Part shown: positions 15,788-55,040 of the stretch, in pieces
Position numbering within the stretch: position 1 is the stretch's first letter
Layout of the letters: each line of letters starts with the position of its first letter
From: an uncultured Acidobacteriota bacterium
GTDB taxonomy: Bacteria; Acidobacteriota; Vicinamibacteria; Vicinamibacterales; CAVVIG01
Length of the DNA: 64,000 nt
Direction of reading: 5' to 3'
NCBI GenBank assembly: GCA_963794305.1
Contig: CAWCDQ010000024.1
Coordinates: 43,648-107,647 of the forward strand
Program-made: the position numbers and the translations under genes
The notes under the pieces: generated by a model
Databases searched by the model: none
Seen by the model: the letters and a program-made list of their open reading frames with translations, nothing else
What the model was told of the DNA's origin: nothing

Positions 15788-15941
15788 ACCGAAGACACGG
15801 AGCGACGTGAGCACACAGAGACAGGATCAGCCACAGAGCCACAGAGACACAGAGCAAGATGAGTTCTTGTTCGTTCTCTCTGTGTCTCGGTGTCTCCGTG
15901 GCTCGTGATGCTCTGTGTCCTCTGCGCGCTCTGTGTCTCTC
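15788..15941. repeat. Periodic CACAGAG(A)/CTCTGTG hairpin overlapping the acylase start
   Basis: gccacagagccacagagacacagag...ctctgtgtctcggtgtctccgtggc. Confidence 0.75.
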
Positions 15942-50854: not shown

Positions 50855-53239
50855 ATGCCTCGCGCGACGTCGGCGGTTGGTCGCAACGTGCTCCGGAAGG
50901 AAGGCTCGTTGAAGACCGCCGGCTCAGCGAAGTACATCGACGACATCACGTTCCCGGACATCCTCCACGGGCGCACGATCCGCTCGACGATTCCCGCCGG
51001 TGAGATCTCGTCGATCCGCTGCAACTTCGACACGGCCGGTTTCACCATCGTCGACGTCCGCGATATTCCTGGGCGCAACGTTGTCGCGCTGATCGAAGAC
51101 GATCAGCCCTGTCTGGCGGAGCGCGCGATACGGCATTTCGCGGAACCGATCCTGCTGCTGGCCCACGAGGATCGCGACAGGCTGCATGCAGCCGACGTCC
51201 AGATCGAATACGTGCCGTCGACGCCGCTCTACGACGCAGAGGCGTCGCCCACCGTGTTCAAGACGATCAGCATCGAGAAAGGCAGCGTCGCCGACGGCTT
51301 CGCGCTCGCCGACCACGTGATCGAGGGCGAATACCGGATGGGGCATCAGGAGCAGCTCTACATCGAGCCGAACGGGGTCATCGCCGTGCCGGGCAACGGG
51401 GTACCGGACGACGTCGACGGGATCACGGTGTACGGATCGATGCAGTGCCCGTACTACGTGCACCGCGCGCTGATGGTGTTGCTCGGCCTTCCCGGCGACA
51501 AGGTTCGGGTGGTCCAGACGGAGACGGGCGGCGGCTTCGGCGGCAAGGAGGAATACCCGTCGATGATCGCCGGCCACGCGGCGCTGCTCGCCAGGAAAGC
51601 CGGGCGGCCGGTGAAGCTGATCTACGACCGCGTCGAGGACATGGTGGCGACGACCAAGCGCCATCCGGCGATCATTCGGCACAGGACCGGCGTCACGCGC
51701 GACGGCAGGCTCACGGCGATCGACATCGACGCGGTGTTCGACGGCGGCGCCTATGCGACGCTGAGCGCCGTCGTCCTGTCTCGCGGCGTGATTCACGCGA
51801 GCGGTCCCTATCGCTGCGACCACATCCGGATCCACGGCCGCGCGACGATGACCAACACGCCGCCCAACGGGGCGTTCCGCGGGTTCGGCGCGCCGCAGAC
51901 GCAGTTCGCGGCCGAGGTCCACATGGATCGGATCGCCGCCCAACTTGGCCTCGATCCCGTTCGCCTGCGCGAAATCAATGCCTTGCGACCCGGCGACACC
52001 ACGGCCACCGGTCAGCGCCTCGGCAAGGACTGCAGCGCCCTCCAGGTGCTGCGCGACGCCGTGAAGCGGACCGGGTTCAGGAAACGCAGGCGGGAGATAG
52101 CGCTCGCGAATCGTCTGGCGTCATCGCCACGAAACCGGAGCGGGACAGCCGCAGGCCATCAGCCGCTGCGGGGAATCGGTCTCTCTCTCTTTTTTCATGG
52201 CTCGGGGTTCACCGGCGGCGGCGAGGTCAAGCTGGCGTCGAAGGCGTCGCTGGCCCTCACCGACCGCGGCGCTCGCGTGCTCGTTGCGAGCACCGAGATC
52301 GGTCAGGGCACGCGGACGATGCACGCGCAGATTGTCGCCGACACGCTCGGCCTTCCTTACGACTGCATCGACGTCAATGCGGCCGATACGGCAGCCGTCC
52401 CCGACAGCGGGCCGACGGTGGCCTCGCGGACGTGCATGGTGGTGGGGCGCATCCTGCAGCGCTGCGCGGAAGAGATGAAGGAGCGGCTCGGCGCGCTGAC
52501 GCCGAAGGAATATCTCCGGCTGCACGGCCCGCTCGTGATCACGAAGGAGTACGAACGGCCCGGCGAGATGACCTGGGACGACGCCAGCTATCGCGGCGAT
52601 GCGTATGGCAGCTATGGGTGGGGCTGCGACGTCGTGGAACTCGCCGTCGACCGCGACACCTGGGAGGTGCAGCCGGTTTCGTTTCTCACGGTCCACGAGA
52701 TTGGCCGGGCGATTCATCCCATGCTCGCCACCGGGCAAATCGAAGGCGGCAGCGCGCAGGGGCTCGGCTACGCCCTGCTCGAGGAGGTCGTGATGCGCGA
52801 GGGCCGGATGGCCAACGCGTCGCTGACCAACTACATCATCCCGACCACGCTCGACTCGCCCGAGATGAAGGTCTTCATGCTGGAGAACCCGTACGCGCAC
52901 GGTCCCTTTGGCGCGAAGGGTGTCGGAGAGATGCCCATCGACGGTCCGGCGCCGGCGGTCGTCAACGCGCTGCGTCACGCGGGCTTCGATGTCCGCGCGA
53001 TTCCGGCGACGCCGGAGCGCATCATGGCGGCGTCGCCGGCTGCGCCGGCTCCACCGAAACAAAGGACACAAAGGAGACAAGGACACGAAGGAAAGGCAGT
53101 CGCCGTTGACCTCTGTGTCCTTTGTGTCCTTTGTGTTGAATGGCCGGCGCAGGAAGCTCGCTGTTCATCCGATGCGACGGCTGCTCGACGTGCTGCGCGA
53201 GGAATGCGCGCTGACCGGAACAAAGGAAGGGTGCGGTGA
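50855..53239 (+). CDS. Xanthine dehydrogenase family molybdopterin-binding subunit (conserved part ends near 53040)
   Basis: QEQLYIEP, GGGFGGKE, AFRGFGAPQ, EIGQG, GQIEGG, GAKGVGE. Confidence 0.92.
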   Translation: MPRATSAVGRNVLRKEGSLKTAGSAKYIDDITFPDILHGRTIRSTIPAGEISSIRCNFDTAGFTIVDVRDIPGRNVVALIEDDQPCLAERAIRHFAEPILLLAHEDRDRLHAADVQIEYVPSTPLYDAEASPTVFKTISIEKGSVADGFALADHVIEGEYRMGHQEQLYIEPNGVIAVPGNGVPDDVDGITVYGSMQCPYYVHRALMVLLGLPGDKVRVVQTETGGGFGGKEEYPSMIAGHAALLARKAGRPVKLIYDRVEDMVATTKRHPAIIRHRTGVTRDGRLTAIDIDAVFDGGAYATLSAVVLSRGVIHASGPYRCDHIRIHGRATMTNTPPNGAFRGFGAPQTQFAAEVHMDRIAAQLGLDPVRLREINALRPGDTTATGQRLGKDCSALQVLRDAVKRTGFRKRRREIALANRLASSPRNRSGTAAGHQPLRGIGLSLFFHGSGFTGGGEVKLASKASLALTDRGARVLVASTEIGQGTRTMHAQIVADTLGLPYDCIDVNAADTAAVPDSGPTVASRTCMVVGRILQRCAEEMKERLGALTPKEYLRLHGPLVITKEYERPGEMTWDDASYRGDAYGSYGWGCDVVELAVDRDTWEVQPVSFLTVHEIGRAIHPMLATGQIEGGSAQGLGYALLEEVVMREGRMANASLTNYIIPTTLDSPEMKVFMLENPYAHGPFGAKGVGEMPIDGPAPAVVNALRHAGFDVRAIPATPERIMAASPAAPAPPKQRTQRRQGHEGKAVAVDLCVLCVLCVEWPAQEARCSSDATAARRAARGMRADRNKGRVR
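53057..53137. repeat. 9-nt periodic ACACAAAGG/CCTTTGTGT hairpin at the Mo-subunit/2Fe-2S junction
   Basis: acaaaggacacaaaggagacaaggacac...ctctgtgtcctttgtgtcctttgtgtt. Confidence 0.8.
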
Positions 53240-53645
53240 AGGGGAGTGCGGCGCGTGCACGGTGTTGATCGACGGCGTTCCCGTGAACTCGTGCCTTGTC
53301 CCGGTCGCGCAGGTGGCAGGAAGGCGCGTGACGACGATTGAAGGGCTGAACGGCCGGCATCCGCTTCAGCACGCCTTCGTGGAACACGGCGGCGCGCAGT
53401 GCGGCATCTGCACGCCCGGAATGATCCTGGCCGCCGTGGCGCTCGGCAAGAATCCGACAATCGATCAAATGAAGACCGGCCTCGCCGGCAATCTGTGTCG
53501 ATGCACTGGCTACTCGGCGATCTATCGATCGATCGAAGCGGCTGGCATTAACCGCAGAGTCCGCGGAGCACGCGGATCAAGAAATCTTCAACGATCAGCT
53601 GGTCAAAAGCGTCGAATCAACAAGAACGCTCGGAGAAAGGCGTGA
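53106..53645 (+). CDS. XDH family 2Fe-2S subunit
   Basis: GTKEGCGEGECGACTV, QCGICTPG, GNLCRCTGY. Confidence 0.92.
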   Translation: MTSVSFVSFVLNGRRRKLAVHPMRRLLDVLREECALTGTKEGCGEGECGACTVLIDGVPVNSCLVPVAQVAGRRVTTIEGLNGRHPLQHAFVEHGGAQCGICTPGMILAAVALGKNPTIDQMKTGLAGNLCRCTGYSAIYRSIEAAGINRRVRGARGSRNLQRSAGQKRRINKNARRKA

Positions 53646-54123
53646 TCGTGATCTGTCACTGCTCTTGCAGCCCCGCCTCGCATGGAACACACCGCGAGCG
53701 CGTTGAACAAGCTGACCGAGCAGATCATCGGAGCCGCCATCCACGTGCATCGGACGCTGGGCCCGGGATTGCTGGAATCGGCGTACGAAGCCTGCCTGCA
53801 TCAGGAGTTGGTCACTCGAGGAATGGCGGTCGAGAGACAGAAACCTCTCCCGCTCTCATACGGCGATGTCGCTCTGGACTGCGTCTACCGGATGGATATG
53901 GTGGTCGAGAACGCCGTGGTCGTGGAGGTGAAGTCGGTCACCAAGCTCGATCGGGTGCACGAAGCGCAGCTGCTGTCGTATCTCAAACTGTCGAAGAAGT
54001 GTGTCGGTCTCATGATCAATTTCAACGTCAACGTGCTGACGGAAAATGGAATCAAGCGCCGTGTGAACGGTTTTCCCGAGTAGTCCGTCGTCTCAGCGGG
54101 CTCGGCGGGCTCCGCGGTTAATG
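53546..54123 (+). mobile_element. Candidate element: GxxExxY gene bounded by 31-bp imperfect inverted repeats
   Basis: Left cattaaccgcagagtccgcggagcacgcgga vs reverse complement of right cattaaccgcggagcccgccgagcccgctga (26/31 identical); interrupts the XDH subunit genes. Confidence 0.6.
53682..54083 (+). CDS. GxxExxY protein (PD-(D/E)XK-like)
   Basis: IIGAAIHVHRTLGPGLLESAYE, YRMDMVVE, VEVK, HEAQLLSYLK, GLMINF. Confidence 0.93.
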   Translation: MEHTASALNKLTEQIIGAAIHVHRTLGPGLLESAYEACLHQELVTRGMAVERQKPLPLSYGDVALDCVYRMDMVVENAVVVEVKSVTKLDRVHEAQLLSYLKLSKKCVGLMINFNVNVLTENGIKRRVNGFPE

Positions 54124-54126
54124 TAG

Positions 54127-55006
54127 ATGGCTGTGTCGATATCACACCGCACGCTGCTCGAGCCCAGGTCGCTCGCTGGCGCCTTGAAGATGCTGCGCGA
54201 CGAGGGGCCGCTCGTGCCGATGGCGGGCTGTACCGACCTCTTCGTCTCGCTCAATTTCGGCACGTTGAAGGACACGCGCTTCCTGAACCTGTGGGCGCTC
54301 GACGCGCTCCGGGCGATCGAGATGCGGAACGGCCTGCTCTTCATCGGCGCGCTGGCGACGTATACCGATCTCATCCGATCCCCGCTCGTTCGTCGTCGAA
54401 TCCCCATGCTGGCCGCCGCGGCGCGCGAGGTCGGAGGCGTGCAGATTCAGAATCGCGGAACGCTCGGCGGCAACGTCGCCAACGCCTCGCCGGCTGGCGA
54501 CACGTTGCCGGTGCTCGCCGCCGCCGAGGCGGTCGTCGTGCTCCGCAGCGCGGCCGCTTCGCGCCGCGTACCGTTCGCCGCGTTCTACACGGGATACCGC
54601 CAGTCGGTCAGACGTCCGGACGAGCTGATCGTCGGGTTCGAAATTCCCGCGATCGGCGGCGAACAGTGGTTCCGAAAAGTCGGGACGCGCGCGGCGCAAG
54701 CCATTTCGAAAGTCGTCGTGGCCGCAGTGGCGCCTTCCGCTTCCACGCGCGGCAGGCGCCGGGCCGGCGGTTCAGGGCGATCTCGACGGCGCCGTGCGGA
54801 TCGCTCTGGGCAGCGTCGGCCCAACCGTCGTGCGGGCGGTGCGAACCGAAGAGGCGCTGGCGGGCGGCGCCTCCCTCGTCGATGCGCAGCGCATTCTCGT
54901 CGAGGAGATCGCGCCAATCGACGACATTCGCTCCACGGCCGAGTACCGCCGGCGCGTCGCGTCCAACCTCCTCGCGCGGTTTTGGACCGACACGCAACGC
55001 AGGTAG
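54127..55006 (+). CDS. XDH family FAD-binding subunit, frameshift near 54770
   Basis: AGCTDL, QIQNRGTLGGNVANASPAGD, PIDDIRSTAEYR. Confidence 0.92.
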
Positions 55007-55040
55007 AATAATCCTCGCCCCCGTCACTCGACCTTCCTGA

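Follow-up and report, generated by a model that had tools for sequence, protein, structure and literature searches.

The stretch of DNA considered here (the window) comprises 64,000 nucleotides (nt) of contig CAWCDQ010000024.1 from an uncultured bacterium of the phylum Acidobacteriota, and contains an operon of the xanthine dehydrogenase (XDH) type in which a small cassette, consisting of a GxxExxY-family gene boxed by terminal inverted repeats, lies between two subunit genes. The whole cassette is 578 nt long (53546..54123, plus strand), with bounds given by the inverted repeat, and relatives are found without all or parts of it. It is composed of a left terminal arm (53546..53576), a 105-nt leader from the left arm to the start codon (53577..53681, plus strand) that carries the read-through tail of the preceding gene, the GxxExxY (PDDEXK_3) gene of 133 amino acids (aa) (53682..54083, plus strand), identified by hidden Markov model matches, alignment and an AlphaFold2 model, and a right terminal arm (54093..54123) that is an inverted copy of the left one, the arms themselves having no strand. 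Upstream lies the gene for the 2Fe-2S subunit (53136..53645, plus strand; Fer2_2 and Fer2 domains) and directly 3' of the cassette the gene for the FAD-binding subunit (54127..55011, plus strand; FAD_binding_5). The arms are 31 nt each, 516 nt apart and complementary at 26 of 31 positions (84%), and a direct complementarity search found them where a preliminary description of this DNA had placed them. Read directly, the left arm is CATTAAC followed by CGCAGAGT, CCGCGGAGC and ACGCGGA, and the reverse complement of the right arm is CATTAAC followed by CGCGGAGC, CCGCCGAGC and CCGCTGA; each arm is built of three units of 9 nt, CGCNGAG and two further bases, and both open with CATTAACCGC(A/G)GAG, in agreement with the same description. 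The right arm starts 9 nt past the GxxExxY stop codon and ends 3 nt ahead of the ATG of the FAD-subunit gene. Local alignment of the two flanks gave an inverted-repeat score of 37, compared to a mean of 21.4 (sd 2.8) and a maximum of 34 (1/400) when a 400-nt pseudo-gene was set at 400 random places in the same genome; since the score exceeds the control maximum, the inverted repeat of the XDH cassette is above chance.

Domain matches and reading frames also bore out that the cassette separates the 2Fe-2S and FAD subunit genes and that the 2Fe-2S frame runs into the left arm: this frame has lost its own stop codon and extends ~33 codons inside the cassette, crossing the left arm and ending at the stop codon 53643-53645, and in relatives with an empty site the protein ends 6-20 codons past the conserved ...YRSI... 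motif. The preceding gap, between the Mo-subunit and 2Fe-2S genes, holds a gene-less hairpin (53056..53137, strand not applicable) of ACAAAGGAC units with a 20-nt loop, before which the Mo-subunit frame has no stop codon; its read-through of ~60 codons overlaps the start of the 2Fe-2S gene, and both intergenic gaps of the operon are filled by elements of this hairpin/cassette class. The hairpin belongs to a family with further copies elsewhere in the genome and in relatives, where units of the ACAAAGGAC type also flank GxxExxY genes (L037, L039, L045, L048 and L050). Such hairpins matter for annotation, as they overwrite stop codons and lengthen host open reading frames (ORFs), so that gene callers mis-set gene ends; both upstream genes here are affected. 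No sigma-70-like promoter was found in 52900-54300, and the GxxExxY gene, with no promoter-like site ahead of it, is therefore probably co-transcribed with the XDH operon. Soil metagenome contigs of two studies (X1 and X2) span both junctions of the occupied allele, which is therefore present in other soil samples too. One DNA contig of a third run (X3) joins 53541 to 54146, with a likeness of 88% and a side of 30 nt, perhaps from another organism, and is a weak hint of a cassette-less allele. Contigs of one RNA run do not cover the inside of 53588-54105 and one starts at 54130, but contigs cannot show RNA ends or RNA absence and nothing is concluded from them.

The product of the GxxExxY gene matches the profiles PF13366 PDDEXK_3 (E 7e-41; 139.7 bits, cut-off 22) and TIGR04256 GxxExxY (E 2e-42; 144 bits, cut-off 35). 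In an alignment of 20 family members from the window's genome and its relatives, the residues of the D...ExK triad (D72, E82 and K84) are invariant (20/20) and are intact here; the same holds for H23, G27, G29, E32, Y60, Q96, N113 and R126, and Y35, which makes up the G-x-x-E-x-x-Y motif with G29 and E32, shows conservation of at least 90%. The AlphaFold2 model has a pLDDT of 92.6 and a pTM of 0.87. A Foldseek comparison with the PDB gave no match at E <= 0.001, the best weak rows being Cas4 SSO0001 (4ic1; E 3e-3) and the Hjc resolvase (2wiw; 7e-3), with an Argonaute-associated Cas4-family protein and a lambda-exonuclease-like protein among the others, and a PDB sequence search with the 20-protein profile returned 0 matches. 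PADLOC gave weak Cas4 matches, and the protein otherwise matches PDDEXK_3 only. As modelled, the protein is apparently an active PD-(D/E)XK nuclease core of minimal size with no extra domain. Its earlier assignment to the PD-(D/E)XK-like proteins is upheld by the two profile matches, the triad and the confident fold model, and so is its distinction from classical transposases, as no DDE, HUH or serine/tyrosine recombinase appeared among the profile matches. The family is widespread: of the first 600 pattern matches in a scan of one collection, 589 were confirmed as relatives; it was matched in 7 of 72,556 plasmid records, mostly very large replicons, and in none of 50,697 phage records, and therefore known vehicles do not explain its spread. 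In a table of their superfamily survey, Steczkiewicz et al. 2012 (PMC3424549) enter 'Unknown' for PDDEXK_3 and note 'multiple transfers, mixed clades'.

The repeat box is not peculiar to the XDH site. The window's genome (6.13 Mb, 66% GC, 48 contigs) contains three GxxExxY genes, all flanked by inverted arrays of 9-nt units, with one unit type each: CCGCGGAGC at the XDH site, ACGCGGATT on contig C32 and ACACGAAAC on contig C45. Among relatives the gene is patchy, with matches in 23 of 41 genomes and 0-6 per genome; from these, 47 loci were taken and 44 scored, as L056 and L065 lacked a flank at a contig end and L070 a tblastn match. A flank score of at least 30 was reached at 36 of the 44 loci, as against 5 of 400 random controls. 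For a more diverse set, one genome per species was scanned with the family alignment, which gave 80 loci, 79 of which could be scored (a flank was missing from L124); the 80 represent Chloroflexota, Bacteroidota, Acidobacteriota, Planctomycetota, Verrucomicrobiota, Cyanobacteria, Chlamydiota, several proteobacterial classes and others. Here 58 of 79 loci scored at least 30 and 48 at least 34, and no shuffled flank pair of these loci reached 30 (0/790, maximum 29). In the diverse set the right arm typically opens 0-20 nt past the stop codon and the left arm typically closes 0-60 nt before the start codon. Two examples from named organisms are an annotated GxxExxY gene of Bacteroides finegoldii (NZ_OY725952.1), which lies between radA and a gene for a FAD-dependent protein and is boxed by a 30-nt arm pair (TTCACCACAGAGGACGCAGAGGACACGGAG and its 90% complement), and the gene of Gemmatirosa kalamazoonensis (NZ_CP007129.1), which has a perfect hairpin on each side, with arms of 35 nt on the left and 21 nt on the right. 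The comparison had been set beforehand and its outcome could have gone against the proposal of a boxed element; repeats in 3/3, 36/44 and 58/79 loci instead support the view, from flank comparison, that a periodic inverted-repeat box is a general property of the GxxExxY family.

The arms are alike in sequence as well as in layout. In the 126 arms counted, the five positions that precede the opening unit hold T (95, 75%), T (80, 63%), A or C (92), A (107, 85%) and C (100, 79%). A k-mer count on the arms of the 58 repeat-positive diverse loci, in which arms were located by complementarity alone, gave CACAGAG 34, CACGGAG 21 and CGCAGAG 12, and at least two CRCNRAR units were present in both arms at 45 of the 58 loci; this conservation holds over genomes of 34-67% GC. 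The consensus arm end, as read from these counts, is 5'-TTMAC-(CRCNGAG-N1-2)n with two to four tandem 8-9-nt units, and the left arm at the XDH site fits it. A control in which the unit pattern was read backwards (18/79) is invalid, because a backwards tandem CACAGAG array holds the same word, and the shuffle control (0/790) stands. An initial impression that the purine-rich arm is always upstream on the strand of the gene was withdrawn, since a hairpin reads alike on both strands. We read the arms as probable protein-recognition arrays in inverted orientation that may double as an RNA stem.

We then compared the gap between the 2Fe-2S and FAD subunit genes among relatives. Seven genomes (G012, G003, G017, G018, G022, G032 and G027) have a compact spacer of 20-52 nt with no hairpin. 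The site is occupied in G000, G008, G004 and G002, occupied but degraded by frameshifts in G011, and occupied in G036, which belongs to another family of the same order. Between these extremes, G009 keeps the arms and leader with the ORF alone missing, G006 keeps the arms and the first ~30 nt of the ORF as the result of an ORF-internal deletion, G005 has a short-loop hairpin and the hairpin in G010 belongs to another family (CACGAAG). At this site G009 and G004 have co-linear flanks at ~92% identity, and an ORF-sized stretch of 413 nt (L004 1841-2253) is absent from G009. The coexistence of empty, remnant, hairpin-only and occupied states therefore shows, at the level of aligned sites, that the cassette is a discrete insertion, and that gene-less hairpins can arise in place by internal deletion; with compact empty sites in seven genomes, the gene is not vertically conserved at this position without empty alleles. 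A tree of 33 proteins groups the four intact XDH-site copies of the genus in a single clade (support 83/76) that excludes the G036 copy; this suggests one old insertion in the genus and a second event, or an older one, elsewhere.

To hunt for target duplications we took the XDH locus and six of the nine G004 hairpin loci, and compared G004 with the ~92% identical G009. At four of these loci (L181, L182, L183 and L188) the match is uninterrupted across the hairpin, at the L186 site the arms are shared but G009 lacks 112 nt between them, and at the L184 site G009 holds a hairpin of a different family (L194). Turnover is also evident in the gap between the Mo-subunit and 2Fe-2S genes, where G000, G004 and G009 carry three different hairpin families. 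Because two sites carry different unit families in genomes that are ~92% identical, it would appear that hairpins are either quickly replaced or that new ones target old ones. These observations raise the possibility of homing, in which the hairpins would be independent repeats resembling repetitive extragenic palindromic (REP) sequences, and the GxxExxY nuclease would cut gene-less hairpins and have repair copy the ORF into the loop from a gene-bearing hairpin, with the arms serving as homology; the protein would then spread the gene and not the hairpins. PD-(D/E)XK homing endonucleases such as I-Ssp6803I exist, and homing would account for the exact ORF-sized indel between leader and right arm in G004 and G009 within co-linear flanks, for arms common to gene-less and gene-bearing copies, for the turnover of hairpin sites (three families in the one gap and two at L184) and for the nested or mosaic arrays that occur. 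However, ~30 nt from the start of the ORF persist in G006 and a shorter remnant in G005, and the gene-less states are therefore better read as deletions than as targets that were never occupied. In addition, recombinational repair would have little homology to work with in arms of 25-35 nt, and homing leaves unexplained why arrays are nearly absent from genomes without the gene (see below). We consider homing unlikely.

Gene-less hairpins are numerous in the window's genome. With all periods counted at one relative threshold, the genome contains 85 self-similar arrays of period 9 and 82 of period 8, as against none of period 10 and six of period 11. Arrays of at least two CRCRRAK units number 432, versus 103 when the sequence is read backwards, and adjacent arrays on opposite strands form 80 convergent and 12 divergent pairs. 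Among 64 short-loop hairpins (loop up to 120 nt), ~35 belong to one family whose ends are conserved beyond the arrays (cACGAtcAGAAGGAAC / CGCGGAGACCGCAAAGAnCGCAGAG - loop - complement / GTTyCTTCTgATCGTg; in abbreviated notation ACGAtcAGAAGGAAC...GTTyCTTCTgATCGT); the ends of the CACGAAG hairpin family are CTACATTAAC ... GTTAAGG. Different unit types occur in nested and mosaic arrangements. By crude gene calls (coding fraction 0.72), which left 18 of the 64 hairpins unclassifiable, 42 hairpins could be placed: 18 between convergent genes, 23 between tandem genes and one between divergent genes, whereas gaps of 40-400 nt genome-wide are convergent in 344 cases, tandem in 1328 and divergent in 345. 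The gene-less hairpins are biased to the 3' ends of genes, as REP sequences are. Three further observations concern arrays of this kind. A hairpin of CACAGAG units amid degenerate arrays lies in the window itself at 15832-15935 (genome C24:59479-59582). The most numerous period-9 family is GGGCAGGAR, at ~30 places (for example C37:171657-171813 and C38:84039-84234); it forms hairpins and flanks a four-helix-bundle gene on C21, and is not of the CRCNGAG type. Finally, a GC-rich, strongly palindromic insert of 170-200 nt lies between CGCGGAT or CACAGAG arms at C31:95308-95566, C5:45209-45478, C32:16968-17823 and L186 (G004:C104); two copies bracket the GxxExxY gene on C32, and the 112 nt that G009 lacks at the L186 site fall inside this insert. 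It could represent an element nested within another or an RNA with structure.

The placement of the hairpins bears on whether the repeats serve the host. They could act as REP-like stabilisers of mRNA, as terminators or as protein sites, with GxxExxY as a host factor, for example an autoregulating one, and nothing mobile. The bias to 3' ends is that of REPs, the copy at the XDH site is vertically kept within the genus, and the family's rarity on plasmids and absence from phage records, given above, point the same way. Several features are hard to reconcile with such a role: the gene's patchy presence, at 0-6 copies over the 41 genomes; the empty alleles and the replacement of one hairpin family by another at one site; the frequent pseudogenes and deletions; insertions that overwrite host stop codons; and the 'multiple transfers, mixed clades' recorded for PDDEXK_3 by Steczkiewicz et al. 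2012 (PMC3424549). We regard a purely host-serving role as very improbable.

Arrays and gene tend to occur together. Three-unit arrays number 3-203 in the 23 of 41 genomes with a gene match and 0-12 in the 18 without one, except for G037. In an even sample of the phylum (301 genomes, including two unpublished ones; gene called at E <= 1e-15), the gene is present in 109 genomes, and at least five arrays were found in 77 of the 109 gene-bearing as against 16 of the 192 gene-less genomes (odds ratio 26, Fisher p ~1e-29, uncorrected for kinship). Moreover, protein clades correspond to unit types, with supports of 96/91 for CACGAAR, 100/99 for CACGAAA, 99/97 for the 8-mer CACRGAG and 97/94 for CAAAGG.

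A second gene family of the window's genome, the four-helix-bundle genes (TIGR02436), is boxed in an analogous way. All four of its members are flanked by inverted tandem arrays of units unrelated to CRCNGAG: C21:38273-38548 (period 9, GGGCAGGAG), C36:13315-13638 (period 7, GGCTGAT), C6:175349-175663 (period 8, GGGTTCAG) and C17:10010-10189 (period 8, GGTAATCG). Among relatives, TIGR02436 occurs in 31 of the 41 genomes at copy numbers that reach 17, and inverted tandem-array flanks, mostly of diverse G-rich heptamers, were present at 20 of 29 loci; the family supplies the ORF of 23S rRNA intervening sequences and is related to Avd of diversity-generating retroelements (PHROG 3206). The box is a wider architecture, of which CRCNGAG arms are the version specific to GxxExxY. 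The same ORF family is known from Coxiella's 23S rRNA intervening sequence (IVS), which PMC4990558 describes as a selfish element of 428 nt with a four-helix-bundle ORF and a 28-bp terminal stem cleaved by RNase III, of unclear origin, and with an old proposal that the ORF serves mobility. The 23S rRNA genes of G005, G010, G011, G023 and G034 are full-length (2975-2994 nt) and contain no intervening sequence, and there is therefore no direct rRNA link in this group.

This parallel suggests a role for the arms in RNA, namely that a stem in the transcript is cut by RNase III and the passenger mRNA excised, which would render the cassette harmless in operons and stable RNAs, the protein having some other role and the element not moving. 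In the predicted fold of 53530-54140 the arms enclose the entire cassette in both the minimum-energy and the centroid structure, and because of this closure, together with the lack of a promoter-like site before the gene in 52900-54300, an IVS-like stem in the operon transcript is plausible. The Coxiella precedent of a stem, a small ORF and RNase III (PMC4990558), the like boxing of four-helix-bundle genes in the window's genome and the position of hairpins at gene 3' ends are in keeping with such insulation. The fold z-score, however, is only -1.39, and RNase III has no requirement for a particular sequence, whereas that of the arms is preserved from phylum to phylum. Arm mismatches in 94 cassettes also show no bias to changes that stay G-U-compatible in the sense RNA (84 vs 83), and 173 of 340 are transversions, which fits a strand-symmetric role at the DNA level. 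A search of Rfam with 10 loci in E-value mode returned sub-threshold plant and animal miRNA-hairpin noise only, with no RNA family over the arms. Insulation would account for the tolerance of the cassette, but not for its spread or for the co-occurrence of gene and arrays; as the whole explanation we find it decidedly unlikely, although it may well hold alongside mobility of the element.

Overall, we give about even credence to the reading that the GxxExxY cassette is a selfish element, similar to pairs of REP sequences and REP-associated tyrosine transposases (RAYTs) or to miniature inverted-repeat transposable elements (MITEs), in which the nuclease itself would read and cut the arms and thereby spread them. 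At the XDH site the cassette has inserted in the spacer between two operon genes and replaced the upstream stop codon. In the proposed mechanism, the nuclease would recognise the tandem arm units as duplex DNA, as an extruded hairpin or as a single-stranded hairpin, and would break the DNA at the arms, which host repair or replication would then copy or relocate. Its action would be in cis on the cassette that encodes it and in trans on hairpins that lack the gene, much as a RAYT acts on REPs and their hairpin-forming doublets (REPINs), or an autonomous transposon on its MITEs. Internal deletion turns cassettes into short gene-less hairpins, and dozens of such hairpins are also dispersed at gene 3' ends. 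That the GxxExxY protein mobilises the repeats is what we infer. Of the preliminary proposal of an autonomous-like element akin to RAYT/REPIN, the inserted cassette, the family-wide flanks, the dispersed hairpins and the co-occurrence of gene and arrays stood up; a target duplication or a recent jump was not found.

A number of results weigh against a selfish, self-spreading cassette. The comparison of seven G004 sites with G009 revealed no target-site duplication and no clean pair of filled and empty sites at high identity, and different loci yielded no near-identical recent copies. The operon alignment that revealed the empty XDH sites likewise yielded no target duplication, the empty sites of relatives being too diverged for a base-exact boundary. 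As the XDH-site copies of the genus form one clade, this copy has probably been in place since before the species of the genus split, as would be expected from long vertical descent. Scores below 30 were obtained for 8 of the 44 loci from relatives and 21 of the 79 diverse loci. The clearest exception to the association of gene and arrays is G037, with 169 arrays and no GxxExxY match (86% complete), and G013 and G015 have 150 and 165 arrays with genes that are only fragmentary or frameshifted; in the phylum sample, 10 or more arrays occur in 11 of the 192 gene-less genomes, and by the strict pattern 20 of the 109 gene-bearing ones hold none. The match between protein clade and unit type is predicted equally by co-evolution and by plain co-inheritance of the cassette. 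Because TIGR02436 genes, which have no nuclease fold, are boxed likewise, the box itself needs no nuclease inside. Lastly, we know of no strand-transfer chemistry in a PD-(D/E)XK core of 125-135 aa, and any mobility must therefore lean on host repair.

The cassette resembles several known systems in layout. REP/REPIN elements with RAYT genes, reportedly described by Nunvar in 2010 and by Bertels and Rainey in 2011, share with it a single small gene flanked by inverted copies of a short repeat, the dispersal of that repeat in tens of extragenic hairpin-forming inverted pairs at gene 3' ends, repeats found largely in genomes that carry the gene, and a repeat variant proper to each gene clade. 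They differ in that the protein here is a PD-(D/E)XK nuclease and not a HUH/Y1 transposase of the IS200/IS605 type, that the arms are tandem 8-9-nt units behind TTMAC and not a single REP palindrome, and that the GxxExxY gene is multi-copy (0-10 per genome) and patchy; the GxxExxY side of this comparison comes from sequence. As in transposons and their MITEs, terminal inverted repeats are common to long coding and short non-coding forms and derivatives arise by internal deletion (G009, G006 and G005), but no DDE, HUH or serine/tyrosine recombinase is encoded and no target-site duplication was found at the G004 sites compared with G009. Short tandemly repeated repetitive (STRR) heptamer arrays of cyanobacteria and bacterial interspersed mosaic elements (BIMEs) of E. 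coli offer a parallel in intergenic, hairpin-forming arrays of tandem 7-nt units, similar to the heptamer arrays of the four-helix-bundle genes, and in mosaics of different repeat types; to our knowledge, and in the literature searched, no link of either with a boxed gene of the GxxExxY or four-helix-bundle kind is described, the cyanobacterial data in this comparison being three loci of the diverse set. With the 23S IVS the cassette has in common an element of ~430-580 nt with one small ORF, a closing stem of ~30 bp formed by terminal inverted repeats, the boxed layout shown here by four-helix-bundle genes, and a sporadic distribution, the IVS having long been suspected of mobility via its ORF (PMC4990558). 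It differs from the IVS in lying in an mRNA operon between protein genes and not in a 23S rRNA helix, in its other ORF family, in arms that are periodic and conserved in sequence, and in its many gene-less derivatives. As defining features of the RAYT, transposase and IVS families were looked for and are lacking, the cassette stands outside these families, though alike in layout.

No prior description of a boxed GxxExxY element was found in Rfam or in the literature searched, supplements excluded (that of PMC3424549 may say more); in these texts GxxExxY is named only in passing, the arm strings appear in no paper and STRR terms gave nothing relevant. The cassette class is so far apparently undescribed. 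GxxExxY/PDDEXK_3 is a large family of unknown function, to which the repeat box gives a function that can be tested and a defined substrate among nucleic acids. Should the nuclease act on the repeats, it would represent a new enzymatic route to REP- or MITE-like repeats and a compact sequence-reading nuclease. The parallel with four-helix-bundle genes also opens the 30-year-old question of where the intervening sequences of rRNA come from. More tentatively, and with some doubt, we suggest that GxxExxY cassettes may be the autonomous representatives of a class of mobile elements found throughout bacteria and driven by a minimal PD-(D/E)XK nuclease that reads tandem 8-9-bp units behind TTMAC, which would be the first generator of REP- or MITE-like repeats to use neither a HUH, a DDE nor a recombinase enzyme, and that together with the four-helix-bundle cassettes they might form a super-class of 'hairpin-boxed small genes' from which the 23S IVS and STRR-like arrays derive.

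Two minor observations concern neighbouring sequences. The FAD-subunit gene next to the cassette appears to change frame at ~54700-54790, frame 0 containing the FAD_binding_5 part and frame +1 what resembles the C-terminal domain; in one soil contig a single nucleotide is deleted at 54782, and the frame change represents either a pseudogene or an assembly error. Elsewhere in the genome, at C46:100360-101100, a pair of genes that resemble, judged by reading alone, a nucleotidyltransferase and a HEPN protein lies just before a GGGCAGGAT array.

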